Below are positions 3,224 to 28,468 of a stretch of 32,000 nucleotides of DNA, in pieces (position 1 is the stretch's first letter; each line of letters begins with the position of its first letter). Location of the stretch: NCBI GenBank assembly GCA_004563595.2, contig CP042461.1:690001-722000 (forward strand). The letters run 5' to 3'. Under the pieces are notes generated by a model. The model worked only from the letters and a program-made list of their open reading frames with translations, was not told the origin of the DNA and searched no databases. Both the position numbers and the translations under genes were made by a program. The DNA is from Candidatus Saccharimonadota bacterium. Lineage in GTDB: Bacteria > Patescibacteriota > Gracilibacteria > BD1-5 > UBA6164.

Positions 3224-4060
3224 CTATTTAAAGTAAAATCAAAGTCATATTAAACTTGTAATAATAAAAGTAAGCATCAGGTCTTTTTTACTAGGTTTAT
3301 CATTTAATATGATAAATGATAACAATAATGTAATTCATATTCATATAAATGAAAGTAAAATAGTAATTGAAAGTCAAAGATTTTTTATTACCATAAGACT
3401 CAAGAACCATGACACCCATCACATTCATCATAACTCTCTATTAAAATAGAATTGTTTTGGAATGGATCCTACTGTTTGTAATTGTCATGTCAGGAATGTG
3501 ATAGTGAGTAATAATACCAGTCAAGTTACAAAATAAAGTATAAAATGTAACATTTCTGAGTATCAAAATAAGAGCCATCATGTTAATATGACACAACATG
3601 CTAGCAGAGATTCAGATAAAACCACTAAAGCCATGTTTCTAGGTAATTTTAATGTTTTATAGTCGATAGAAAAAAGAATCATAACCACTATTGCAATAAG
3701 AGTTATAACAAGTGAAGTAAATGATACATCAGAAAAAATAAAGTATCAGATTATTATAACAATAATTTTGCTTATATTTTTATATGGTAGCAGAAGAGAT
3801 AGTTTCTCTTCTTTGTAAATTTTTTGATTTAGTTGTGAAATAATTGTATGTAATATTATGATCAAAAAGGTTCAGAAAAATATTGTTAAGTCTATTTGTC
3901 AAAAATCAATTCATACACATAAAAAATATAAAACAAGTACTCATCATATTGGGTAACCTAATAAATCATGGAGTTTCGTTCAGACTCAAAAACGCAATGA
4001 TTTTTTCCAAAAAATCATTGCAAATGATTCCATTATTGTAGAAAAGATTGCTGTAAACAT
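3224..4060 (-). CDS. EamA/DMT-family-like polytopic membrane transporter, 278 aa (alternative in-frame ATG at 4102)
   Basis: ATG at 4060 runs to TAG 3224-3226 with many TGA=Gly. It has hydrophobic repeats and an EamA-like C-terminal motif (FIILNDKPS...SLIGLGFYF). The start was chosen by analogy with the paralogue at 1692-2564. Confidence 0.6.
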
Positions 4061-4206
4061 GTATTGATTAATATAATTATATATCAATAAGAATTTTAAC
4101 ATATTTTTTTATATAAGACAAGGTAGAAATATAAAAAAATTAGTATTCGCTAATAATTAGGTTATAATAAAGGTCGTTTAAAATTTTACTTACTAATTTA
4201 TAAACT

Positions 4207-7818: not shown

Positions 7819-7821
7819 AAT

Positions 7822-7853
7822 AAAAAACCAGAGTAATTCTACTCTGGTTTTTT
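7822..7853. terminator. Bidirectional intrinsic terminator between convergent genes
   Basis: An A-run, then CCAGAGTA (7828-7835) pairing with TACTCTGG (7840-7847) across a 4-nt loop, then a T-run 7848-7853. The FemAB stop codon (7839-7841) lies inside the hairpin. Confidence 0.8.
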
Positions 7854-8888
7854 ATAATAATATCATCTTTTCTTTCTTCTAAAAGTCTCAATTGCCCAAT
7901 TAAACCAATATCATGAACTAATAACTAAATCTTGTGCATGGAGCAGTGAATAATCATATCAAGCAAATTTTCTTTTGAACTTTGAGACTCAAGCGATTGG
8001 ATGATTTGGGTTACCATCTGGAGAAACTCACCAAAAGTTATAAAGAGTACATCCATCTTGTTTTGCTTTCAATATAGCCTCCCATTGACATAAATAATTT
8101 GGAGAAAATTTATTACTTCTAATATCAGATGCCGCAACATAATATACACAAGTATTTCAAAACTTAATAGTCATCATTATAGATTCAATATATCATTCAT
8201 ATGATGCAGATATAGTAGAAATATCTTCTTTTGAAAAAACCTTATAGAGATTTTTGATATATTTCTTTGAAAATGCTGTATATTTATGCTTTCCGTTATC
8301 TCTCACAGCATGAGTTTGATGATAATTGATCAATGTATCAATATGATCCTTCTTATTGTCTATACGGATAACAACACCCTCCTTTTTTGCTCTATTAATA
8401 TAATATCTATCCTTTTTTGCTATATTACTTAAAAGTTCATCTTCAGAGGCCTCTAAGCTTAATAAGTGAGTATCCTCAGCATGAATATGCATTGGAGCAT
8501 CTATAAATCAAAGATTTTTATATTTTGATTTATTTTTCTCAGTATTACTTTGAACTCAGTTTAAACGTATAAAGCTACAGTTTTCTGATTCTGCAAGACG
8601 AACAAGGTGTTCTTGAATATCGTCTAAAACTTTAAAGTAATTTCACTGAATAAGTGGTCCATGAGGAGTAAAAAAGTAGGTTCATCTTTTTGCAACTACT
8701 TTTATGAGCTGAATCACTCAAATAAGTTCTTTTTTGTTATATATTCAGAGTCTAAATATATAATTCCCTTCTAAAATCTGAAACTCTCACCATTCCCATG
8801 AATCGACAAAACTATAGAATTCAAAACCTCAATTTATAATAAAATCATTCCATTTATTTTTTGAATCAATTATTTTTAACTTATACAT
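7839..8888 (-). CDS. FemAB-family peptidoglycan interpeptide-bridge aminoacyltransferase-like protein, 349 aa
   Basis: ATG 8888 runs to TAG 7839-7841 with TGA=Gly. It has FemAB-like features: an N-terminal W..F(.)..SWEWGEF stretch, the central block of track ORF 8193..8492 (LLSNIAKKDRYYINRAKKEGV), and a C-terminal YNFWGVSP...GVSKFKRKFAG. Confidence 0.8.
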
Positions 8889-8902
8889 CTTTTATTCATT
8901 CA

Positions 8903-10231
8903 TTAAATATAATACTTTTTTATAGTTTTCACTATTCTTTTTGCATCATTCAGACTTATTTCTGCATGGTTTGGGAGAGTAAATACTTTTTTACTTATTT
9001 TTTCAGCATTTAAACATGATCAAGCTCTATATCAAGCAGCTTGGATATTCGTTCCATTTGGAATTATAGCTCAGCCGTTCCAATAATCTCAAAGTAAAAT
9101 CTTATTTTTTTTACAGTATTTTTGAAGTCATACTGCGTCTACAACTATAATAACACATCCATAATGATTATTCAAAGATTTTTTTCAAGTTTTTATAAAT
9201 CTAATTTCTTTTATATCTGAGATTTTTTTTTGATAATATTCTGCCAGAAAAATCCTATGCTGATTATACTTATCTAATAGATCTAATTCTTTTCATCAAA
9301 GATATGCTAAAGCATTTGGCAGTTTATAGTGAAGTTGAGTAAAATTACAGTTTTTTTCTTCTGGGGTTAATATTTTTGTAATCAATTTCAGTTTACTCGA
9401 AAGAAAAATCAATATTTTTCCTATCCATAGAATATCATAGAGCTTGTATGCCATATATCATAGTATATTATAATTCAAATTTCTTAAAATTGTAATAATT
9501 GATACGTGTGTTAATTGAGTTTCAATTTTATCAGATATCTTAAAATATTCTTTATTATTTATAATAAGATACCCCCCTGTAACAGAAGAAATAACTTTAT
9601 CTCTCCCTGTTGAGAAAATACTAAAATCTCAGAAACTTCATACCTTTTTACCGTCAATTTCAGATCAAAGGGCATGGGCACAATCTTCTATTAATAGTAG
9701 ATCATTTTTAACACAAAGTTTTTTTACAACATGAATATCGATAGGGTTTCAAAATGTATGTTGTACCATTATAGCTTTTGTCTTTTTTGTAATCTTATTT
9801 TCAAGTGATTCTAAATCAAAATTTAGAGTTTTTATATCTATATCCGCATAAATAGGAATTGCTCCAGATTGAATAATAGCATTTGGAACAGATACACAGG
9901 TATAAGCCTGAATAATTATCTCGTCATCTTTTTTAATATTTAGTCACTGCAAAAGATTATATATAGCAGACCTCGCATTATAAAAAGAAATGACTTTAGA
10001 TTCTTTAAGACCTAAAATATCTCATAATTTTTTTTCAGTATTATAAATATATTTTCAATCTTTTAAATGGAACCAAAATAGAGAATTCCATAAGATCTTT
10101 AATGTATTTAAAAATATTTGAGAATTAATAGTAGTAAAAAAATGTGCTATAAGTGTTTTTCTGAACATGTGTATTATTTAGATATATATTTTGCTGACCT
10201 TCTTCATTCAAATAACATAACTGACTTTTCA
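8903..10231 (-). CDS. DegT/DnrJ/EryC1/StrS-family PLP-dependent sugar aminotransferase-like protein, 442 aa (start uncertain)
   Basis: TAA lies at 8903-8905. The conserved core is YTCVSVPNAIIQSGAIPIYADID, LLLIEDCAHALG(TGA)S, FSTGRDKVISSVTGG (Lys candidate for PLP) and LPNHAEISL. The only in-frame ATG is at 10231, which overlaps the murF 3' end by 58 nt. Confidence 0.75.
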
Positions 10232-11751: not shown

Positions 11752-12534
11752 TTAAATATTCTTTAAAAATGTAGAAATAAGGAGCTTTGGATTCTGTAAA
11801 TGTATTCCATGTTTTTCATCAGGAATAGTAACTATCTTTGAGTGTGGTATTAATTTTCTCATGAACAATCAATCTGAGAGTGGAGTGTATGTGTCTTTTT
11901 CTCCCCAAAGAAGAAGTGTATTAATTTGTATCTGAGCTATATCTTTTGTGAGATCAGAGGATATCATATTTAAATATGTTTGTTTGAGGTAAGGATTCCT
12001 TTCTGCTTTTAAATAGTCTTGTGATCAGATGAATCTGTAAAATAAGTTTCTGAGTGATTTTAGAATTCTGCCCCCTCATTCTTTGGGTATTCCCTTTTTA
12101 ATTAGTTTTGTAATGCTATTAAATATTTTCCTCTTTACACTTCTTTTATTATCATTTCTTATTCAAGCAGAATTATTTAAAACAAGTCTTGTGATGTCTA
12201 ATTTTCATCTGTTTGCTATTTTAATCGATATTGCTCATCAATTACTATGTCACCAGAGTATAAGTTCATCAATTTTTAATTCTTTGATAAAATTTTCTAT
12301 CAGGAGAGCATAGTCATCAAGTGTAAATACTGATTTAATTTCTGTTTTTCAGAATCATGGAAGGTCAGGAATAATTACTTTGAAGTTATTATTTGATAAT
12401 AGCTCTCCTAACTGCATCCAACTATCACTCTCTCATCACCACCCATGAAGAATTACAATAGCTTGATCATGTTCAGGTCAATACTCTTTGTAGTTTATAT
12501 TATATGTTCAGATTTTGATTTGTTTTTCTTGCAT
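11752..12534 (-). CDS. Alpha/beta-fold hydrolase, 260 aa
   Basis: ATG 12534 runs to TAA 11752-11754, 3 nt before the murF start. Motifs are HGWGG (oxyanion region), the nucleophile elbow G-H-S-N-G-G at 12232-12255 with three Gly as TGA, and a C-terminal EKHGIHLQ (His). Confidence 0.8.
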
Positions 12535-12639
12535 GTATTGAAACGAAAATATGGAGTAATAAATTAGTTCTTATTTTAGTGATTTTTATTATTAAGCAAA
12601 AGAATTTATATAAGTGATTAAAAATAAAAATTAGGTCAC

Positions 12640-13080
12640 TTATAGAGTATCTGAGTACGAACTTAAAACCATAAAAAAACCAATTACCTGTTTAGGCAAT
12701 TGGTTATTAATAATTTCTTTAATCACTCAATTTATACTAGTGAAAGTTATTCCTCCACACATCAGTAAAATTGGAATTGTGACAGAAGTAAATCCAAGAA
12801 TCTTATTCAAGATTATTTTTGTATCATACTTTTTGATGGAAGTATTAGTTTCATCACATTTTTTATTAACATATGACAACTCTCCTTGACTCATGTATTG
12901 AGCCTCAGTGTAAACACTTCTTGTGTTGGTTAAAACCTTACAATGTTTTTCTTTATCTATTCCTAAAGACCTACCTCGAGTAATAAAGAAGATTACTATA
13001 AAAAGGATCAATCCGACAAATAAGAATAACCCTATAACTGACACAATTACAAAGATTGTCACTATAAAATCAATAAACAT
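12640..13080 (-). CDS. Small two-TM membrane protein of the TGA-free cassette class. It is 117 aa if TGA 12727-12729 is a stop, or 146 aa if read as Gly to TAA 12640-12642.
   Basis: ATG 13080 is preceded by AAGGAG (13087-13092). There are 8 Gly, all GGN. It has hydrophobic N- and C-terminal segments. The standard-code ORF is 12727..13080. Table-25 read-through runs across its own terminator. Confidence 0.6.
12672..12705 (-). terminator. Intrinsic terminator of the small cassette gene
   Basis: On the minus strand, AACCAATT (12705-12698) pairs with AATTGGTT (12685-12678), with inner GG/CC pairs, followed by a T7 tract. It starts 21 nt after TGA 12727-12729. Confidence 0.75.
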
Positions 13081-13135
13081 ACCTTTCTCCTTTTTTTTAG
13101 TACATTATTTATACTCGAAAAGTACATGAAGTCAA
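13081..13135 (-). promoter_or_regulatory. Promoter plus Shine-Dalgarno of the small cassette gene
   Basis: On the minus strand: TTGACT (13135-13130), a 16-nt spacer, TATAAA (13113-13108), then AAGGAG (13092-13087) 6 nt from the ATG. Confidence 0.65.
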
Positions 13136-13319
13136 AAAAACTTAATAAAACCTAGCACTAAATGTTACTTTTAGAAGAAAAAGAACTAAAAAATAGTTAC
13201 TCTTATTAATAATGGACCAAGAGAAAGACTAAGCTATTTGACTCCTAATAAAATTTGTAATAACAAATCTAAAAATTGAATTTAACTTTAAATTCTAGAT
13301 ATATATTTATTGTAAGCAC

Positions 13320-13346
13320 ATAAAACCCCCTGTATTACCAGGGGGC
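13320..13346 (-). terminator. Intrinsic terminator of the 539-aa lipoprotein gene
   Basis: On the minus strand, CCCCCTG pairs with CAGGGGG (13326-13345) across a 6-nt loop, followed by TTTTAT. The stem is unusually GC-rich for this window. Confidence 0.8.
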
Positions 13347-13367
13347 TATATTATTCTCCTTTTTTAG

Positions 13368-14987
13368 TTAACAATCTATTAAATCCCCTAATAAATCACT
13401 TAATAAATCATCATCATCTTCATTTACATAAGCAGCATAAGCTACAGAAAATAAAAATCCACGAGTTGTTAAACTATCATAGTTTGTGAAATTTTCTACA
13501 ATACCTCGTTCTACAGCAAAATCTACAACTTGTTTTTGCCATGTGTCATCTATAGTTGAATTAAAACTATAGCCCAAATCAACAGCACTTAGAATAGCTG
13601 CTAAGGTTTCAGCTTTTGTAATATAACCTTCAGGATGAAAGTTAGTATTAGAAGTACTAATTTTACCCGCATCTGCTAGAGCTTCAATATATTTACAAGC
13701 CCATGTGTTTGGGGTTATAGCAGAAACGTCAGCAAAAATGTTATCACATATAGTTTTTGGATCTAAGTCAGCAACGAGTGTTGCAATCTTCGCAAACTCC
13801 TGTCTAAAAATATAATCATCTAAGTGATATTCCTCAATAGTTGTTAAGTTTGCAATAAATTCCAATTCCACCAAGCCATTTACCGCATCAATTTCCATGT
13901 TACTTGGTTCATAATCTGGATCCTTTACCTGTAAAATCAAATTTAGATCATCAGTATATCCTGAAGAAACCAAAGTTAAGAGATTATCTGTTACAGAATT
14001 CTCAATTTTAATATCAAATTCCTGATTTCCACTTAGATCCCAATAGCATCTGCTAAAAGAAGCATCATCAGTAGAATACTCGACTTCATTAATAGTGATT
14101 TGATGTAAATCAACATCATTTCCTATTACAAAGTTAAGACATACAGTATAGCCCTCGTCATTTGTAAAGTTAAAAGTATCTAAGATTACAAATGCTTCAT
14201 TCTCAGCAGGTAAAACACTAAATAATTCTGGTGTTTCCCAGTCAGAAATATTAAACCAATTTTTCCCATTTATAAATCGTGGGACAAAATCATGTGGAAT
14301 TTTACGACAAACTTGATGTTCGTCATCTAAGAAACATAAGCTCTGTATAGATTTAGTAGTTGATAAATATATCGAATTCAGACGTAAATTGCCTGACTCA
14401 TATACATATAAATCATCTCCTTCATGTACATAAACGTATGGATTATCCGAATAATTACTTATATATTTTTCAACCACTTTGGTTGGGATAAAATCAAGGT
14501 TTAATTCAGATAAATACAAATCTGAATAAACCGAACTATTAGGTACAGATATTGGCCTGGGAAGTCGAACAAAAGAATCAGAACTAACGTCAAACTCTTG
14601 AGCTACTCCATAGGCACGACTATATCCATCTCTATAAAGATTTTGAGTTACCTCATAGTTTCCTGCAGGAAGCTGAAAAATAATTTCATCTTCATACTTT
14701 CCTTCTATAAGAGCTCTTTTTTCTTCATAATAACTATGATCATCAGTGTTTCTCACTACTGCAATCAGAAGTGAAGCTGATTTCATAATATCTAATATAG
14801 ACAGATCACCTTTCGCTAATGCATCTTCAGAATTATATGAAAATTTAACTTCATACCTTTCTGCGGTACTAGCTGGCTCTTCTTCCATTGACCTCGGTTC
14901 AGGCTCAGGATCAGTACCTCCATCTGATCCACAAGCAGAAATAAAGAAAATGGTACAAAGAATAAAATAAGATAATATCTTACTCAT
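13368..14987 (-). CDS. Surface lipoprotein with C-terminal SLH-like repeats and an acidic tail, 539 aa (TGA-free cassette class)
   Basis: This is an intact standard-code ORF ending in TAA. Its signal peptide has the lipobox FISAC. There are 22 Gly, all GGN. The C-terminus resembles an SLH consensus (FADV....W..YIEALADAGKI....FHPEGYITKAETLAAIL, plus flanking partial repeats). The SD GGGAG lies at 14994-14998. Confidence 0.85.
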   Translation of the reverse strand: MSKILSYFILCTIFFISACGSDGGTDPEPEPRSMEEEPASTAERYEVKFSYNSEDALAKGDLSILDIMKSASLLIAVVRNTDDHSYYEEKRALIEGKYEDEIIFQLPAGNYEVTQNLYRDGYSRAYGVAQEFDVSSDSFVRLPRPISVPNSSVYSDLYLSELNLDFIPTKVVEKYISNYSDNPYVYVHEGDDLYVYESGNLRLNSIYLSTTKSIQSLCFLDDEHQVCRKIPHDFVPRFINGKNWFNISDWETPELFSVLPAENEAFVILDTFNFTNDEGYTVCLNFVIGNDVDLHQITINEVEYSTDDASFSRCYWDLSGNQEFDIKIENSVTDNLLTLVSSGYTDDLNLILQVKDPDYEPSNMEIDAVNGLVELEFIANLTTIEEYHLDDYIFRQEFAKIATLVADLDPKTICDNIFADVSAITPNTWACKYIEALADAGKISTSNTNFHPEGYITKAETLAAILSAVDLGYSFNSTIDDTWQKQVVDFAVERGIVENFTNYDSLTTRGFLFSVAYAAYVNEDDDDLLSDLLGDLIDC

Positions 14988-15109: not shown

Positions 15110-17347
15110 CAGCTTCCTAACCGGAGCAATTCTAATATTCATCTTTTTAATTCCATTACTTGAAAATGCTATTTCAGCAAGCTCTCAAGTCAGGCTTGTA
15201 ATGATTCAGTTTCAAAATTTTGGATGTGCTACTTTATCTCACATAGAAAAAATTGAAACGTCGTTATTTGCAAGAGGTTTTACAACTTTTTTTGCTGTAC
15301 TGGCTCATCAAAAACTAAATCAATCCGAAGTTCATCAAAGTGATGATACGGATGAGAATATTGAGGTTCAACCAAGACTTTTTTCTGTTATAGCATAGTT
15401 TTCTATAAGTTGAGTATCTATTTCTTTCATAAACCTTGATTCTGGATTTCTTACATAATCTCAAAAATGAAATCTTTCTTTTGCTCTACTGATATAGAGT
15501 TCTTCTCTGGCTCTGGTCATTCCCACATACATGAGTCTTCTTTCTTCTTCCAATGCATTAACATCTCATACACTTCTAAAACTTGGAAATATCCCATCCT
15601 CAAGTCATGTTAAAAATACTCTTGTTTGTTCAAGTCATTTCGAAGTATGGATTGTCATAAGGGTGACATAGTCTTCCCTTTCATCTTTTGTATCCATATC
15701 TGTAATAAGTGCTACTTCTTCTAAAAATTGTGCGAGTGATTCTCTTGGATCCATTCAATTATATTGTGAGGCTACGGTTATTAATTCTTCTATATTTTCT
15801 TTTTTTGATTGCGCTTCATCTGTAGATAATCCATCAGTAATATATTCTTCATATTGAACAGCTTTAACAAGGTGTGAGATTAATTCTGAAACTACTATTT
15901 TATTTGATTGTTCTCTCAGTGTATTATATATTTCTCAGAATACTTTGATCGAGAGTCTTGCTGCTGGTCTGAGTTCTTCTACTTCATCTATATTCTCTAT
16001 GATTTGTAGGTACGGGAGTTCAAAATTTAATTTATAATTATCAAGTATTTCTATACTCTTTGCTCCTATTTTTCTTGTAGGGACATTAATTATTCTCTTC
16101 ATACTCACTGCATCATTAGAGTTATGAATCACTCTTAAATATCCAAGTAAGTCTTTGATTTCTTTTCTATCGTAAAACTTTTGACCTCAAATAACTCTAT
16201 ATGGTATATTTTTTATCATTAGAGCTTCTTCAAGTTGTCTTGATTGTGCATTTGTACGGTAGAGGAGGAGATTATCCGCATATTGTCATCCATCTTCAGT
16301 TCAATCTCTTATTATTCAAGCTATTATACTTGCTTCAGTTTTATCATCTGGTGCTTCAATATAGTTAATTTTATCTCATGTATTATTATCAGTCCAAAGT
16401 TCTTTTTTGATTCATGAGTTATTATTTTTAATAACTGAATTTGCTCCTGAAATAATGGTTTTAGTAGACCTATAATTTTGTTCTAATTTTATAATAAGTG
16501 CATCCGTATAATCTTTTCTGAAATTGATTATATTTCTCATATCAGCTCATCTCCACGAATAGATTGATTGAGAATCATCTCAAACGACAGCTAAATTTCT
16601 ATATTTTGCTGCTAATAGTTTTACTATTTCATACTGTGGAGCATTGGTATCTTGATACTCATCTACCATGAGATATTTATATCTTTCTTGATAAATGTCT
16701 AAAATTTTTGGAATTCTGAGCAATCAAAGCGTTTTTACCAATATATCATCAAAATCAAGGGCATTGTTTTGCCTGAGGTTTTCTTCATATTTTAAGTATG
16801 TTTTAAATACAACTTCTTTTATTGAACTATCAATTTCTGCTTCGTAGGCTTTTGCTGAAATCAGTGCATTTTTGGCATTTGATATATAAAATGCTATCTG
16901 TCTTGCTGGGTATTCTTTTTCATTTAAATGAAGTTCATTTTTAATAATTCATTTTAATACTGATAATTTATCAGATTCATCATAGATAACAAAGTCTTTC
17001 TTTAGTCAAATAGCTAATTCTTCGCTATCAAAATTGTTTAAGACTTCTTTGAGTATAAATATTCAAATCGAGTGAAAGGTTCCAATAAGTGGAAAGTTTC
17101 ATCTTGAATAAATACTTCTAGGAGTTTCAACTCAGAGAGTTTTTGCTACTCTTTCTCTCATCTCACTCGCAGCTTTATTTGTAAAGGTAACCATCATAAC
17201 ACTTGGTGGTACTATCCCCTTTTCTTTGATCATATAATTTACCCTTTGAGAGAGTGTTGCTGTTTTTCAACTTCATGCTCATGCTATAATAAGCAGTGGT
17301 CACTCTATTTTATTTTTTGCCTCTTCTTGTTTTGGATTTAATTGCAA
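15110..17347 (-). CDS. pcrA: ATP-dependent DNA helicase PcrA/UvrD, 745 aa
   Basis: A probable TTG start at 17347 (no in-frame ATG; begins [10 protein letters not shown]) runs to TAA 15110-15112. Motifs are Walker A AGAGSGKT at 17261-17284 (all three Gly are TGA), [40 protein letters not shown] (track ORF 15935..16132), TIHTSKG(TGA)[10 protein letters not shown] and a C-terminal [11 protein letters not shown] tail. Confidence 0.92.
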
Positions 17348-17433
17348 ATTATATGTATTAGTTCATAAATATTGCTATGATTTTATGGATTAATAATGAA
17401 ATGTAAAAGAGAATTTGGAGAAAAGAAAAAAGC

Positions 17434-17463
17434 TCTCATCCCTGAGAGCTTTTAAGGTTTATT
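17434..17463. terminator. Intrinsic terminator of the 477-aa lipoprotein gene (possibly bidirectional)
   Basis: AGCTCTCA (17440-17447) pairs with TGAGAGCT (17452-17459) across a 4-nt loop. On the minus strand it is followed by TTTTTTCTTTT. Confidence 0.8.
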
Positions 17464-17467
17464 ATGG

Positions 17468-18901
17468 TTATTTATCCAAGGGTAAATCAGCAGCGATATG
17501 CGAAGATAAACCAAATGAATTATCCACATTTAATACATCATATTTAATCCCATCTGAATATAATGCAAGATTCACGGTATCATCTACCAAAGGGTTAGTA
17601 GGTCTAATGCCAAAGGTTTCAAAGTCAGCTGATTGTAATGTACTATTTAGGCTCGTTACATCAAAATTTAAAACTCCAACGATAGGCCAATTTTCCAGTA
17701 TATTACTAGTATCAAAAGCATTGAATAATTCATATTTTCCATCGTAACTTGAGCCAGTTGTATTGAAAAGCAAAGTTGAAATTTGAACTTCTACACTTGC
17801 ATTCGAGCTTGATGATGTATTATTCCCTACATTTAATGATATATTAATTTCAGCTGTATCACTAGAATCCAATGTTGCGTTTGCCCATACATTTATTGTT
17901 GCTGGAACAACAGAAAAAGCTTTTGAGCTTATTATATTGTTCAGTTCGATATCTGCAATAGGTTCTCTTGAAACTGCCCCAATAATTCCAGTAAAAGCCA
18001 TTCCTGTTACTTTTGCATTTCTAAGAGTATGGCCAATCTTTTGATAACCAATAGTTTCTGTATTAAGCCCTATTGTTAGGTTATTAATTCCTTCAGGTAT
18101 TGTCAAAAAATTAAATGTAATAGTATTGGGACCAATATTGGAAAAATCAGTTATAGCAATAGGTGTATCTCCTAAATAGAGTGTAGCGCTTGAGATAGAA
18201 GCCCTTAAGTCAAGATTTTCCCCCTCAAAGGTATAAATTAATCCTGAACTAAGAATATCTTCATTAACAATCTCTATATTATTAGAAAATACTTTTCCTG
18301 AAGTTCCAGCAAGAATATTTTTTATATTTTTATTGACAGGACTATGAATATCTTCAGTGAGACTTGCAACTCCACTATCGGTTATAGTAACAATTCTAGA
18401 AGAAAATATTTCCTTATCAAGGATACCATCCTTATTTTTATCACCGGAATAGTATATTACTTCACCTTTTTCATTTAATGCAGATACTGAAACAAGTGAA
18501 GTTTCAACTGGATTAAACCCAGATTCAGGATCAGTATTCATAAACGACACATGTACAAGATAATCGGTTCCAGTTTTAGTAATATTTTCAAATGTAGCGA
18601 TACCATTTTGTAAAGATATACCTAAAACACTTCCAAGTAAATTATCGGGAGACCTAGAACCTCTATATAGCCTTACTTCATTGATTTGGTTACCTGTAGC
18701 ATCTTCTGATTCAGTATAAATATGCACTTGTACGGCATTTACTAAAGATGCTTCATCTACTTTAAATCCCAAAGTAAGAATATTATCAGCTCCTCGAGGT
18801 ACAGATTTATCATCTAATTGAGTAAGAGTGAGACTCGTACCACCACAGGCTCCTAGACTAAACATACATATTGTAATGAAAATCCCTTTTAGTAAGGTCA
18901 T
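17468..18901 (-). CDS. Surface lipoprotein, Ser/Thr/Asn-rich, probably beta-rich adhesin-like, 477 aa (TGA-free cassette class)
   Basis: This is an intact standard-code ORF ending in TAA. Its signal peptide has the lipobox FSLGAC. There are 37 Gly, all GGN. It has a DKNKDGILD calcium-loop-like motif. The SD AAGGAG lies at 18910-18915, 8 nt from the ATG. Confidence 0.85.
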   Translation of the reverse strand: MTLLKGIFITICMFSLGACGGTSLTLTQLDDKSVPRGADNILTLGFKVDEASLVNAVQVHIYTESEDATGNQINEVRLYRGSRSPDNLLGSVLGISLQNGIATFENITKTGTDYLVHVSFMNTDPESGFNPVETSLVSVSALNEKGEVIYYSGDKNKDGILDKEIFSSRIVTITDSGVASLTEDIHSPVNKNIKNILAGTSGKVFSNNIEIVNEDILSSGLIYTFEGENLDLRASISSATLYLGDTPIAITDFSNIGPNTITFNFLTIPEGINNLTIGLNTETIGYQKIGHTLRNAKVTGMAFTGIIGAVSREPIADIELNNIISSKAFSVVPATINVWANATLDSSDTAEINISLNVGNNTSSSSNASVEVQISTLLFNTTGSSYDGKYELFNAFDTSNILENWPIVGVLNFDVTSLNSTLQSADFETFGIRPTNPLVDDTVNLALYSDGIKYDVLNVDNSFGLSSHIAADLPLDK

Positions 18902-23682: not shown

Positions 23683-23706
23683 AAGAACTATATAAATAGT
23701 TCTTTT
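23681..23706. terminator. Bidirectional hairpin terminator between convergent genes
   Basis: AAAAGAACTAT (23681-23691) pairs with ATAGTTCTTTT (23696-23706) across a 4-nt loop. The priA stop (23705-23707) overlaps the stem. Confidence 0.7.
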
Positions 23707-26280: not shown

Positions 26281-27096
26281 ATGGAATTCTCAACTGAAAC
26301 AGCACCATATGTATGGTATGCTATGCAAATAGCTTTAGTATTTTCAATTATTACTATTATAGCAATAGCTATCAAGAATATAAAATTAAAAAAAACAAGT
26401 GAAAAGTTTAATCAGGATCTTGAACTAGCTCTTAACAATTATCAAGACCTAAGTCTTGATCCTGACGATCATAAAACTTCTGAGTTTGACTCAATAAGTG
26501 AACTAATAGAAACACTACTAGGCTTACGAATACAAAAACAAAAATTAGAAGAGAAAAATGAAAAGCTTGAAAAATCAAGTAATAACTTAGAAGAGCAAAG
26601 GGATACTGCTAACAAAAAAGTAGGTCAACTCCTTGAAAAAATAACAAAAACATTTAGTGAAATCTGTCCTGAACATTCTAAGGTAGCAAACATTAATAAT
26701 ATTGCAGCTCTTATAGCGGAAGGATATGAAGCACAAAAATTTAAATATGAGTCGTCAATTGAAGAAATAAAAGAACAACTGAGCAGAGTTAATGAAGAAT
26801 TAACTACAAAAAATAATGAAGTACTCAGGTTGGATGAAAAATATATGGATCAATTAGTTAGCTATAAAAGTGCTCTTATACTAGTAATAGCACTAAAAAA
26901 TACACTTATTAAAGAATCATATCTAGAACTTCTTGAAAAAAGAATAAGCCATTTAATAAGCACGGCTAGCGTTAAAAACGAGGGATCAATAAATATAATT
27001 ATAGAGTCCATAAAGCTATATATAGCTGATGAAAATGAAAAAGATCAACTCATCCAAATTCCAGTAAAAGAAATACAAAAACAATCAGTTGCATAA
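26281..27096 (+). CDS. N-terminally membrane-anchored coiled-coil protein, 271 aa (TGA-free cassette class)
   Basis: This is an intact standard-code ORF ending in TAA. It has one N-terminal TM helix (VWYAMQIALVFSIITIIAIAI) followed by long heptad-like Glu/Lys/Leu-rich sequence. There are 4 Gly, all GGN. It has its own promoter, SD and terminator. Confidence 0.8.
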   Translation: MEFSTETAPYVWYAMQIALVFSIITIIAIAIKNIKLKKTSEKFNQDLELALNNYQDLSLDPDDHKTSEFDSISELIETLLGLRIQKQKLEEKNEKLEKSSNNLEEQRDTANKKVGQLLEKITKTFSEICPEHSKVANINNIAALIAEGYEAQKFKYESSIEEIKEQLSRVNEELTTKNNEVLRLDEKYMDQLVSYKSALILVIALKNTLIKESYLELLEKRISHLISTASVKNEGSINIIIESIKLYIADENEKDQLIQIPVKEIQKQSVA

Positions 27097-27121: not shown

Positions 27122-27155
27122 AAAAAAAGCGATACTCACGAGTATCGCTTTTTTC
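27122..27155. terminator. Bidirectional intrinsic terminator between convergent genes
   Basis: An A-run, then AGCGATAC (27128-27135) pairing with GTATCGCT (27142-27149), then a T-run 27150-27154. The murE stop (27155-27157) abuts it. Confidence 0.8.
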
Positions 27156-28468
27156 TATTTTAAAATTTTATTATCATCTATTCATTTAAGAATTTCATTT
27201 ACCACTGCTTTATCATGCCATTCAACTGGTCACTTATTTGTAATTAACATATGCTCATCTCACTTTCAAGCAATAAGTACAATATCATTCTCTTCAGCCA
27301 TAAGTAAAGCTGTTGTAATTGCTTCTTTTCTATTAGTAATGATCCAAAAGTCTTCTGATTCTTTTCTCTCAATTCAAGGAAGAACATCTTTTATTATATC
27401 CTCTGTTTTTTCAGTATAATCATCATCCTGAGTTAATATCACAATATCTGATAATCTTGATACAATTTCTCACATTATTGGTCTTTTTGTCTTATCTCTA
27501 TCTCAAGTAGCTCAAAAAACAGTGATAATCCTTTTGCGACCATTGATATCAGAGAGAGTTTCTAAAACTTTTTCCAATGCATCAGGGGTATGAGCATAAT
27601 CAATAAATACTTTAAAGTTTTCCTTATTGTTCAATACTTCATCTAACCTTCAAGGAACTCATGTAATATTTTTGATCATTTTAGGGATCATATCCGATTC
27701 AATTCAAAAAGATATGAATACTCCCACAGCAGCAAGAATATTAGAAATATTAAAGCTTCCTATAAAGTGAGTATCAATATGAATATTTGGTCAAGCAACT
27801 TCAATATCAAAGCTCATACCATTAATATCATTCACAACATTGATTGCTTTCAGATTTGATTTATCTCCATTTCAATAAACAAACATAGAATCATAGGTCT
27901 CAGCTAAAAATAATTCTTTATAATCACTCTCTGAGTTTATAACTGCTGTCTTTTTTATTCATGGTTTTCTCTTATAACCAATAAGATGTTTAAATATTTG
28001 TAGCTTTGTATTCACATAATCTTTCATTGTCTTATGTAAATCAAGATGATCTTGAGTAATATTTGTTAAAACTGAAACGTCATAATCAATTCCCCGAACT
28101 CTATGCATTTTTATACCATGAGATGCTGTTTCAATGACAGCAATTTCACATCATTCATTTTTTGCAAGCTTGAGTAATCTTTGAAGTTCAAAAGCATCCG
28201 GAGATGTCATTTTTGTATTATTTGTATATTCACTATCATTTATAATGATATTAACCGTTGAAAACATAAATACTTTTTTTCATGCGTCTCTGAGTCACTT
28301 TGCAATAATATTAGAAGTTGTTGTCTTCCCATTTGTTCAGGTAACTCAAATTATTATCATTTTTTTTGATGGAAAACCATAGTATATATTTGCTATGATA
28401 GCTCTTGATTTGTGGTAGAGTAATCTAAATGGATTATCAAGTGAGATGAGTTGTTTCAACATTTTCAT
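27155..28468 (-). CDS. murE: MurE-type Mur ligase (UDP-MurNAc-L-Ala-D-Glu--diamino acid ligase-like) lacking the canonical N-terminal domain, 437 aa
   Basis: ATG 28468 runs to TAG 27155-27157. Motifs are the P-loop G(TGA)VTG(TGA)TNGKTTT at 28319-28348 (aa 41-51), VIETASHG, LTNITQDHLD.H, DYAHTPDALEKVL, FG(TGA)ATG(TGA)DRDKTKRP and IAG(TGA)KG(TGA)DEH. My hand count gives 19 TGA and 10 GGN Gly codons. Confidence 0.82.

Follow-up and report, generated by a model that had tools for sequence, protein, structure and literature searches.

When a bacterium reads UGA as glycine, a TGA that lies exactly where the stop codon of a gene would be expected raises the question of whether it is an ordinary sense codon or the relic of a former gene end. 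Such a TGA follows a 117-codon open reading frame (ORF) in the stretch of 32,000 nucleotides of BD1-5 DNA that was analyzed here (the window). The original prediction regarded this ORF as part of a cassette and as the clearest standard-code footprint in the window, or else as evidence for context-dependent UGA termination. We therefore asked what the TGA represents, how the gene acquired it and what its presence would mean for the transcript.

The genetic code of the host

Use of code 25 is confirmed by the window itself, in which ORFs of at least 100 codons amount to 7.3 kb under table 11 versus 42 kb when TGA is read as sense. TGA accounts for 338 of the 504 glycine codons (67%) in 21 ordinary genes of the window, TAA is the stop codon in 21 of 25 window genes, and no tRNA genes are present within the 32,000 nucleotides. 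As for termination, RF1 does not read UGA. The genome paper on Ca. Gracilibacteria bacterium 28_42_T64, the source of the window, which describes code 25 and the lack of prfB, detected no prfB across BD1-5 genomes, the host of the window included, and makes no mention of tmRNA or SmpB (PMC6851277). Additionally, a database that treats UGA as a stop yielded 0 unique peptides in a proteomics study of a different BD1-5 bacterium (PMC4032931).

The open reading frame

Features of the locus are collected in Table 1. The ORF can be read directly on the minus strand as had been described, from an ATG at 13080-13078 to a 3' end that encodes ...ITFTSIN, with AAT at 12732-12730 as the last codon before the TGA. 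The promoter-like element upstream gave the top score in our own scan of 13330-13075; a separate promoter scan skipped it, since it accepts only -10 hexamers whose sixth base is T. The predicted protein is hydrophobic at residues 2-33 and at about 89-115, with an intervening loop that contains two Cys residues. All 8 glycine codons of the ORF body are GGN and none is TGA, which at the host rate has a chance of 0.329^8 = 1.4e-4. Codon use is otherwise host-like with the exception of Gly and Arg, and the ORF has a GC content of 0.286 and a GC3 of 0.258 versus a host GC3 of 0.14-0.23. Neighbors that belong to Gracilibacterial families have these traits in common with the ORF, as well as the SD-led start that sets it apart from the bulk of genes.

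Table 1. Coordinates of features at the locus (window positions)
Feature	Position	Strand	Basis or remark
Upstream SLH-domain lipoprotein gene, 539 aa, 22 GGN / 0 TGA	13368..14987	-	context
Promoter-like TTGACT-16-TATAAA, 5' of the ORF	13108..13135	-	consensus match only, 10/12
Shine-Dalgarno AAGGAG, 6 nt 5' of the ATG of the ORF	13087..13092	-	sequence
ORF body, 117 codons, predicted membrane protein	12730..13080	-	read from sequence
Disputed TGA, sole in-frame TGA of the ORF; Gly under code 25	12727..12729	-	sequence
Table-25 extension past the TGA, 28 sense codons, VIKEIINNQLPKQVIGFFMVLSSYSDTL	12643..12726	-	spans hairpin and U-run
Intrinsic-terminator hairpin AACCAAUUGCCU-AAAC-AGGUAAUUGGUU, 12 pairs (4 G-C), -15.0 kcal/mol	12678..12705	-	terminator scan
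Seven-T run; first two in stem pairs, five beyond the stem	12673..12679	-	sequence
First in-frame TAA, 35 nt past the hairpin	12640..12642	-	sequence
Downstream co-directional alpha/beta-hydrolase gene, 14 TGA	11752..12534	-	context

Homologs of the ORF protein were not recovered beyond the sequence itself. A word-indexed search of 5.8e9 proteins gave self-hits only, as did a full HMMER search over 1.84e9 representatives, and the cluster mate P0006 is the table-4 translation of identical DNA, in which the TGA appears as W. By exact look-up, P0006, the 117-aa form and a 548-aa protein from the same window occurred on no further contigs, a codon-degenerate DNA pattern of the ORF had no match in metagenome contigs, and no relatives were found in viral contigs, phages or plasmids. 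The only match in Pfam was to PF10112 and fell below threshold (E = 0.007, 16.8 bits; cutoff 29.8), while PHROGs gave nothing above threshold.

The terminator and the extension

A gap of exactly 21 nt (12726-12706) separates the TGA from a stem with a 4-nt loop and the 3' flank TTTTTATGGT. The terminator that had been predicted at this position stands up well, with its 12 pairs lying in a 111-nt segment that folds with a z of -4.24 and better than all shuffles (0 of 200 fold as well). Its description as a stem followed by T7 is correct as to the seven T residues, but the first two of these lie in the stem so that five U follow it. The hairpin energy compares with -14.9 to -20.3 kcal/mol for four clear terminators of the window. 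From standard terminator behavior, the transcript would be expected to end at about 12675-12671. The hairpin is located right after a co-directional stop only if the TGA is that stop, as the TAA of code 25 sits 35 nt beyond it. We also considered a selenocysteine UGA with a SECIS element and rejected it, as no Rfam family reached its gathering score in the window and the hairpin has a U-run of the terminator type; a permissive RNA-family scan of 12450-13400 returned only chance-level matches to unrelated families.

Beyond the TGA the frame is open, as proposed, through the hairpin and T-tract for 29 codons counting the TGA (GVIKEIINNQLPKQVIGFFMVLSSYSDTL) up to the TAA at 12640-12642. This read-through form of 146 aa is the one annotated by NCBI (QFR39246.1), with the junction ...TSIN-G-VIKEIINNQLPK... 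and the C-terminus ...SSYSDTL. The expectation that termination at the U-run would leave the transcript without a stop codon also holds, given that the only in-frame TAA or TAG occurs downstream of the hairpin. An open frame of this length is within chance because 21% of 373 genes from low-GC code 25 loci have at least 28 codons between their true stop and the next in-frame TAA or TAG. The extension peptide derives from the hairpin and T-run themselves (NQLPKQVIG-FF).

Gene ends in the window and in other code 25 loci

In all 10 terminator-linked genes of the window, the hairpin either overlaps a TAA or TAG or follows it by 0-27 nt. A stringent scan of 85 code 25 loci (about 0.5 Mb) located 17 terminators at 0-44 nt after a stop, 17 that overlap a stop and 5 within ORFs. 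Among the 544 ORFs of these loci, the hairpin at 12705-12678 is the only strong terminator to fall within the final 100 nt of a frame. Similarly, it is the only one of 35 terminator-linked gene ends to be preceded by a TGA in the stop slot, with the remaining 34 having TAA or TAG. The other terminator-like hairpins inside ORFs number four in about 0.45 Mb of coding sequence, and the window holds a 13-bp example at 4022-3993. By position alone, chance would place approximately 0.6 terminators this close (100 nt or less) to the end of an ORF among 544 genes. Consequently, the case for a relic stop rests jointly on the position of the TGA, the quality of the hairpin and the fact that this TGA is the only one of the gene. 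We also checked about 70 rplU genes for a TAA-to-TGA stop-loss and found none.

TGA avoidance and Shine-Dalgarno use

A gene body free of TGA might be taken to back the claim that the locus is a standard-code footprint, and this criterion did not survive comparison with native genes. In 61 code 25 loci rplU contains 121 TGA codons versus 300 expected (z = -18, or -12.8 once Gly positions biased by the search pattern are dropped). S-layer genes on other code 25 contigs are also depleted, with TGA at 4 of 74 Gly codons in one and at 0 of 58 in another. Thus, a TGA-free body is no marker of a standard-code gene in code 25 DNA, as depletion of TGA also extends to native rplU and S-layer-type genes. 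The ribosomal gene rpmA could not serve as a second control, as it is not beside rplU in the loci used and a motif search for it was negative. In a limited sample of the literature we found no published account of UGA avoidance in code 25 organisms.

Within the window, a Shine-Dalgarno sequence (SD) precedes the four TGA-free genes and is otherwise seen at one doubtful internal site, and it is absent from 19 of 20 TGA-rich genes. Across code 25 loci the presence of an SD tracks TGA-poverty with an odds ratio of 47 (p = 4.5e-9). A small set of SD-led, TGA-free genes is distinct from the SD-less, TGA-rich bulk.

Neighboring genes

The upstream SLH-domain lipoprotein gene has its own terminator at 13345-13326. 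Downstream, the hydrolase gene heads a hydrolase-murF-aminotransferase-femAB-like run that ends at a terminator at 7855-7820. Promoter candidates between the ORF and the hydrolase ATG at 12534 are weak and match at 8/12 at best, with TTTGCT-16-TAAAAT at 12600-12573 being a plausible promoter for the hydrolase operon.

The notion of a cassette as a contiguous foreign block is contradicted by pcrA, a gene with 35 TGA codons that separates two TGA-free lipoprotein genes. Judged by their sequence relationships, the supposed cassette neighbors are members of Gracilibacterial families. For example, the 548-aa protein has an SLH module with matches only among proteins on code 25 contigs, and a 482-aa TGA-free lipoprotein, a distant relative of a Gracilibacterial S-layer protein, has a syntenic ortholog whose gene is likewise TGA-free despite saturating divergence. 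Synteny was assessed with PcrA-anchored loci of GTDB genomes, a set that does not contain the source genome. In the closest relative (L006, 60% identity) the gene order beside pcrA is rearranged and the TGA-free genes show no relationship to those in the window. No syntenic coverage of the spacer that holds the ORF was obtained, owing to this rearrangement and to the length of only 1.7 kb of a second locus (L166), which stems from a close relative (contig Ga0187366_1314155 of JGI metagenome 3300017598). Neither meaningful direct or inverted repeats that might represent insertion scars nor mobile-element genes flank the ORF.

A probable relic stop and its expected consequences

With moderate confidence, we favor the interpretation that the TGA marks the original stop position of the gene and that the hairpin and U-run 21 nt on are the gene's own terminator. 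The TGA occupies the slot where terminator-linked genes of the window carry TAA or TAG, and it is the lone TGA of a gene whose body departs sharply from the glycine codon use of the host. The hairpin has the stability of clear window terminators and folds far better than its shuffles, and the extension is made of this hairpin and its T-run, with a length (21% null) that gives no sign of selection holding the frame open. UGA is sense in this host and prfB is missing according to the genome paper. Against this interpretation, the former protein end is not directly visible in a gene without homologs, and terminator-like hairpins do occur inside ORFs, albeit at a low rate. In addition, a G-to-A change back to TAA would be easy in an AT-biased genome and has not happened, which is unexpected if a non-stop message is costly, and the rplU genes have not undergone any comparable loss. 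Overall, the locus is most likely a single-gene oddity, and it proves neither that the gene is foreign nor that TGA has a second meaning.

Under the relic-stop interpretation, the original unit would have been a tidy one-gene package of promoter, Shine-Dalgarno sequence, 117-codon ORF, stop slot and terminator. Ribosomes of the present host would not stop at the TGA, because UGA is glycine and no RF2 is reported, and would presumably insert glycine and enter the terminator region. The outcome would then be set by the efficiency of termination at the U-run. An mRNA ending there would contain no stop codon, and ribosomes on it would reach the 3' end with about 136 residues made, stall and require rescue. 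Transcripts that escape termination would give rise to the annotated 146-aa protein and continue toward the hydrolase-murF genes, and escape would be favored by translation that now passes through the hairpin. A non-stop mRNA from this ORF is thus possible, and we put it no higher because translating ribosomes may suppress the terminator. As in stop-loss or reassignment extensions known from codes 4 and 25, a codon at the stop position would be decoded with translation proceeding to the next recognized stop. Unlike those cases, the extension crosses the gene's own terminator, so that the next stop may lie off the transcript, and no homolog shows the ancestral end.

Two routes could have led to a relic stop, and they are about equally likely and not separable from one another. 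One possibility, which we advance tentatively, is that a native TGA-avoiding gene, probably strongly expressed, lost its stop when TAA became TGA by an A-to-G change at 12728. Avoidance of TGA is a trait of native code 25 genes, as seen with rplU and the S-layer and lipoprotein genes, and the ORF has an SD, a near-consensus promoter and a strong terminator in common with its native TGA-free neighbors. With TAA being the prevalent stop, a single change suffices, and we estimate that one case in 35 terminator-linked ends is a plausible rate if the change is nearly neutral. This route is opposed by the AT mutation bias of the genome, against which an A-to-G change runs, and by the absence of stop-loss from rplU, a gene that is admittedly under strong constraint; furthermore, high expression of the ORF is suggested by sequence signals only. 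The standard-code footprint claim is weakened because such a native transition explains the locus equally well.

The other possibility, somewhat doubtful taken by itself, is a recent import from a standard-code organism that brought along a TGA stop, SD, promoter and terminator. It is supported by a TGA-free ORF body, by an orphan gene that carries its own promoter and terminator, and by an SD that nearly all TGA-rich genes of the window lack and that is associated with TGA-poverty across code 25 loci. In low-GC standard-code bacteria an estimated 10-20% or so of genes end in TGA, and one TGA-ended gene among roughly 10 SD-led TGA-free genes is, by our estimate, about what import would predict. 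However, no standard-code, phage or plasmid homolog exists among the sequences searched, and native rplU and S-layer genes avoid TGA in the same manner. As the evidence on the 548-aa and 482-aa proteins indicates, the remaining genes of the window that combine an SD with a lack of TGA were not imported. With Gly and Arg set aside, the ORF uses codons much as the host does and has a GC3 close to that of the host, and the flanks are devoid of meaningful repeats and of mobile-element genes.

Alternative interpretations

The most serious alternative, which we nevertheless regard as unlikely, is that the gene is an ordinary 146-aa table-25 gene in which the TGA is simply glycine and the hairpin is coincidental or leaky and mostly suppressed by ribosomes. 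This is the form that NCBI annotates, the frame is indeed open as far as the TAA, and terminator-like hairpins within ORFs are known, including the one at 4022-3993. Intrinsic terminators late in a translated region are repressed by ribosomes in E. coli, and transcripts that read through to the TAA are therefore plausible (Li et al., PMC4824070). What speaks against an ordinary gene is that its C-terminal tail has a length within chance and is composed of hairpin and T-run, that the sole TGA of a TGA-avoiding gene would have fallen into the narrow stop slot, and that 0 other strong terminators occur in the last 100 nt of the 544 ORFs.

It is improbable that the ORF is non-functional, meaning a frame that is decaying or arose spuriously within an 800-bp spacer and whose ending is of no consequence. 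An orphan without homologs invites this explanation, as do its hydrophobic stretches, which are T-rich and could arise in an AT-rich spacer. However, with TAA and TAG at approximately 6.7% of codons we estimate that only about 0.03 frames with 117 codons or more would be expected in such a spacer, and the ORF possesses a correctly spaced canonical AAGGAG despite the rarity of SDs in this genome, as well as a 10/12 promoter and a well-placed terminator.

A further alternative, very unlikely in our estimation, is that the arrangement constitutes a regulatory device in which the UGA acts as an attenuator or non-stop switch. In one version, antitermination would depend on ribosomes and tRNA-Gly(UCA), with prompt decoding of the UGA allowing the ribosome to melt the terminator, complete the 146-aa protein and permit transcription into the hydrolase-murF cell-wall genes, while a lag in decoding would lead to termination, a non-stop mRNA and rescue. 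The geometry is suitable in that the ORF passes through the terminator under code 25. Judged by footprint size, a ribosome paused at the UGA would leave the stem free and a few codons later would cover it. Moreover, a co-directional operon begins 137 nt downstream and the intervening promoter candidates match at 8/12 only. Attenuation at pyrBI and rph-pyrE exemplifies such ribosome-mediated control of intrinsic terminators. Going by the position effects measured in E. coli (Li et al., PMC4824070), a stop 21 nt before a hairpin should leave the terminator functional, and ribosomes that translate into the hairpin should repress it. Unlike pyrBI and rph-pyrE, this ORF is no short leader. A two-helix membrane protein of 117-146 aa with a strong SD would be an atypical leader peptide, no alternative antiterminator structure is present, and TTTGCT-16-TAAAAT could serve as promoter for the operon.

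The second version of a device would be an arfA-like non-stop gene with a product level that is governed by the ribosome-rescue capacity of the cell. There is a precedent in E. coli arfA, whose hairpin toward the 3' end of the reading frame yields a non-stop mRNA by design, through RNase III cleavage or premature termination, and places the product under tmRNA control (PMC3989581). Our ORF resembles arfA in the hairpin within its 3' part, in a predicted transcript end ahead of the stop and in a hydrophobic tail of the full-length form. It differs in that the product is a membrane protein of twice the size with no similarity to ArfA, which requires RF2 as a partner that this host is reported to lack, and in that the arrangement may be accidental.

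Finally, UGA can be sense internally and a stop near the 3' end in the ciliate Condylostoma and the trypanosomatid Blastocrithidia, by a mechanism that needs a UGA-reading release factor and eukaryotic mRNA 3'-end proteins. The UGA studied here bears a superficial likeness to these, as it is near the transcript end in the stop position and sense elsewhere, and differs in the reported lack of RF2 and in a pattern that was seen once and not genome-wide. Context-dependent termination is extremely unlikely in this bacterium, as it would draw on the geometry of a single locus and is opposed by the reported absence of prfB from BD1-5 together with the inability of RF1 to read UGA, by a pattern unique among 35 terminator-linked gene ends, and by BD1-5 proteomics without peptides specific to UGA as stop (PMC4032931).

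Implications

If the TGA is a relic stop, then this locus provides a concrete case of the fate of a gene end in a bacterium that uses UGA as sense and is devoid of RF2. A stop that was lost or imported would be unreadable in such a host, with the next usable stop possibly located beyond the end of the transcript, which would bear on how easily lineages of this type take up foreign genes and how much they depend on ribosome rescue. The weight of this example is modest, given that it involves one orphan gene that is known here from its sequence alone. Avoidance of TGA and the existence of a separate SD-led gene set additionally suggest that decoding of UGA as glycine is still costly or slow. They also serve as a warning for annotation, in that "TGA-free" is not to be equated with "foreign". 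TGA avoidance, although a by-product of this analysis, may outweigh the single locus in its value for annotation and for our understanding of code 25.

The reassigned TGA and the open reading frame

The window comes from Candidatus Gracilibacteria bacterium 28_42_T64 (a contig of 1,343,103 bp), a closed 1.34-Mb genome whose genes were predicted by code 25 and which, like every other BD1-5 genome, is reported to lack prfB (PMC6851277). Recoding of TGA is visible in the window sequence itself, with ORFs of at least 100 codons covering 42 kb when TGA is read as sense versus 7.3 kb under table 11, and with TGA making up 338 of the 504 glycine codons (67%) in 21 ordinary genes. The ORF under study is recorded as hypothetical protein A9Q91_03345 (QFR39246.1) with an annotated length of 146 aa. 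Re-reading of the sequence confirmed every coordinate of the original prediction, which had an ORF ending in TGA just before its own terminator, and the anomaly is real and was properly described. The fold of the hairpin region is much more stable than that of shuffled sequence (z = -4.24), and the hairpin alone reaches -15.0 kcal/mol, with four clear terminators of the window spanning -14.9 to -20.3.

Features of the ORF locus, TGA-free genes and hairpins in the window
Feature	Position	Strand	Remarks
Start ATG	13080	minus	AAGGAG before it
ORF body	12730-13080	minus	117 codons, ending ...ITFTSIN
Disputed TGA	12729-12727	minus	21-nt spacer to hairpin
12-pair hairpin	12705-12678	minus
Seven-T run	12679-12673	minus	its first two T lie in the final stem pairs
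TAA ending the frame past TGA	12642-12640	minus	35 nt past hairpin; frame reads GVIKEIINNQLPKQVIGFFMVLSSYSDTL
SLH lipoprotein gene	13368-14987	minus	539 aa, 22 GGN, 0 TGA; directly upstream of ORF
Lipoprotein gene	17468-18901	minus	477 aa, 37 GGN, 0 TGA; beyond pcrA
Membrane coiled-coil protein gene	26281-27096	plus	271 aa, 4 GGN, 0 TGA
Perfect A-run/T-run palindrome terminators (several)	7820-7855, 17428-17453, 23683-23704, 27122-27155		serve genes on both strands
13-pair hairpin, then TTTTT	3993-4022	minus	5' part of EamA-type transporter ORF 3224-4108

The ORF is probably a gene. It sits in an 800-bp spacer where a chance open frame of such length is improbable, it is led by a canonical Shine-Dalgarno (SD) sequence and a promoter-like TTGACT-16-TATAAA (10/12 matches, the best in its upstream region), and its product has two long hydrophobic segments. 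It is also a complete orphan, as searches of 5.8 billion proteins and a full HMMER search over 1.84 billion representatives returned only itself. Its cluster mate is identical DNA translated under table 4, no relatives were found among viral contigs, phages or plasmids, and Pfam and PHROGs gave no above-threshold match.

Position of the TGA relative to gene ends

In all 10 terminator-linked genes of the window the hairpin overlaps TAA/TAG or starts 0-27 nt past it. Our own stringent terminator scan of 85 code-25 loci found 17 terminators at 0-44 nt past a stop, 17 overlapping a stop and 5 inside ORFs, and the hairpin studied here is the sole scanned terminator in the last 100 nt of any ORF, with an in-frame TGA 21 nt upstream. 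The 29-codon tail is the translated hairpin and T-run and nothing more, and does not speak for coding, as the frame stays open just as far beyond the true stop in 21% of genes. Terminator-like hairpins do occur within ORFs at a low rate, and their density predicts about 0.6 such coincidences close to an ORF end in 544 genes. The case for a former stop therefore needs the combined weight of position, hairpin quality and the occurrence of just one TGA in a gene that otherwise avoids it. The geometry points moderately to a former stop, and we lean slightly towards reading this TGA as a relic stop codon before the gene's own terminator in a host that reads UGA as sense.

Gene ends are very compact in this genome, and the A-run/T-run palindromes often overlap the stop codon itself, as at the femAB-like gene (TAG 7839-7841) and murE (TAG 27155-27157). 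The hairpin within the EamA-type transporter ORF has no upstream co-directional gene to terminate, and may have arisen by chance or act as a 5' regulatory element.

TGA avoidance in native genes

As an independent control we used 80 metagenome loci around rplU, encoding ribosomal protein L21 (L086-L165). L21 genes at 61 loci contain 121 TGA codons against 300 expected from their neighbours (z = -18), or 74 against 168 (z = -12.8) when glycine positions open to search-pattern bias are removed. S-layer-type genes on two code-25 contigs use TGA for 4/74 (L001) and 0/58 (L167) glycine codons, and the lipoprotein genes of the window for 0/22 and 0/37. Some native code-25 genes, presumably strongly expressed ones, therefore maintain an avoidance of TGA.

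The body of the ORF has 8 GGN and no TGA (probability 1.4e-4 at the host rate), and three further genes in the window lack TGA as well. We rejected the idea that these genes form one block, because pcrA with 35 TGA separates the two lipoprotein genes. The other three do not appear to be imports. For the SLH-like module in the 539-aa protein, matches are confined to proteins on code-25 contigs; they include an S-layer gene (70 GGN, 4 in-frame TGA) whose neighbours use TGA for 14/19 glycine codons, and a CAP-domain protein with TGA at 32/41. A syntenic orthologue of the 477-aa lipoprotein lies on JGI metagenome contig L166 (window 17428-18901(-) versus L166 1-1722) and has 26 GGN and no TGA, an identical terminator hairpin and downstream intergenic DNA that is ~90% identical as read from the alignment. 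The C-terminal third of this orthologue shares 76% DNA identity and the N-terminal two thirds just 25-40% protein identity, and the lipoprotein beside pcrA appears to be a mosaic surface protein that diversifies rapidly. A distant homologue lies within an S-layer-type locus of a 23%-GC code-25 genome, where two adjacent TGA-free ORFs (58 GGN, 0 TGA) have TGA-rich neighbours.

Additional observations concern related loci and arginine codons. An S-layer-type gene of L167, 8655-12157(+), is seemingly split by an in-frame TAG (9426-9428) with coding-like sequence beyond, which could be a frameshift, assembly error, pseudogene or two-gene boundary. L006, the closest relative that PcrA comparison found (60% identity), has directly beside pcrA three small TGA-free ORFs led by an SD, and also a TGA-free 425-aa ORF (8718-9906(-), 15245-16519(+)); these show no similarity to the TGA-free genes of the window and nothing significant in Pfam/PHROG, one having weak PHROG matches of unknown function. 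In the two TGA-free lipoprotein genes CGA and CGT are far commoner than in host genes (CGA 4/24 versus 4/254 arginine codons; AGA 42% versus 76%). Since a reassignment to Trp is reported for CGA and CGG in Absconditabacteria, and for CGG in some Gracilibacteria (PMC8629427), what CGA means in 28_42_T64 may merit a check.

Among the 24 complete genes of the window, those with an SD are exactly the four TGA-free genes, and ordinary genes nearly lack one. Over 268 non-L21 genes from 85 code-25 loci, the presence of an SD is strongly associated with TGA-poverty (odds ratio 47, p = 4.5e-9). A distinct class of SD-led, TGA-free genes thus exists, mostly envelope proteins and orphans. We infer that it marks special expression rather than foreignness, because L21 and two S-layer genes are TGA-poor yet have no SD, and class members with homologues are Gracilibacterial.

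Origin of the TGA

The original prediction saw a gene written for the standard code. The main argument for this, the TGA-free body, fails because native genes in code-25 bacteria also avoid TGA, but acquisition, from a donor using the standard code, of a gene with a TGA stop is as good an origin as the alternative. The link between SD and TGA-poverty leaves some room for it. There are neither flanking repeats nor mobile-element genes to mark an insertion, and no donor homologue was found in protein databases, viral contigs, phages or plasmids. The other origin is stop-loss in a native gene by a single TAA-to-TGA transition, which would produce the same sequence; TAA is the stop in 21/25 window genes. 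No such loss was seen among ~70 rplU genes.

Predicted consequences for expression

Since UGA is read as glycine and RF2 is reported missing, ribosomes should run past the TGA. Should RNA polymerase stop at the U-run, the transcript would carry no stop codon, and ribosomes would then stall after ~136 residues and need rescue. A non-stop mRNA is a reasonable hypothesis. ArfA-type rescue is ruled out, as it is described as requiring RF2 (PMC4245945) and prfB is reported absent; the genome paper makes no mention of tmRNA or ArfB (PMC6851277). The non-stop outcome is not assured, because in E. coli the ribosome represses intrinsic terminators that lie late in a translated region (PMC4824070) and the terminator may likewise leak under code 25. 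Leakage would yield the 146-aa product, and transcription would run on towards the hydrolase-murF genes, which lie 137 nt downstream and form an operon whose own promoter candidates are only weak. A designed switch, which could resemble arfA (PMC3989581) or pyrBI-type attenuation, is conceivable but improbable. Context-dependent UGA termination, also raised originally, would fit the geometry of this locus alone and is highly improbable given the reported absence of prfB, TAA/TAG at 34/35 terminator-linked gene ends and no peptides specific to a UGA-as-stop database in proteomics of another BD1-5 bacterium.

Avoidance of UGA in native genes suggests that its decoding is still costly, and a limited literature search on code-25 organisms found no mention of such avoidance. 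The locus by itself is of modest interest; the broader avoidance of UGA and the class of SD-led genes without TGA merit genome-wide study.
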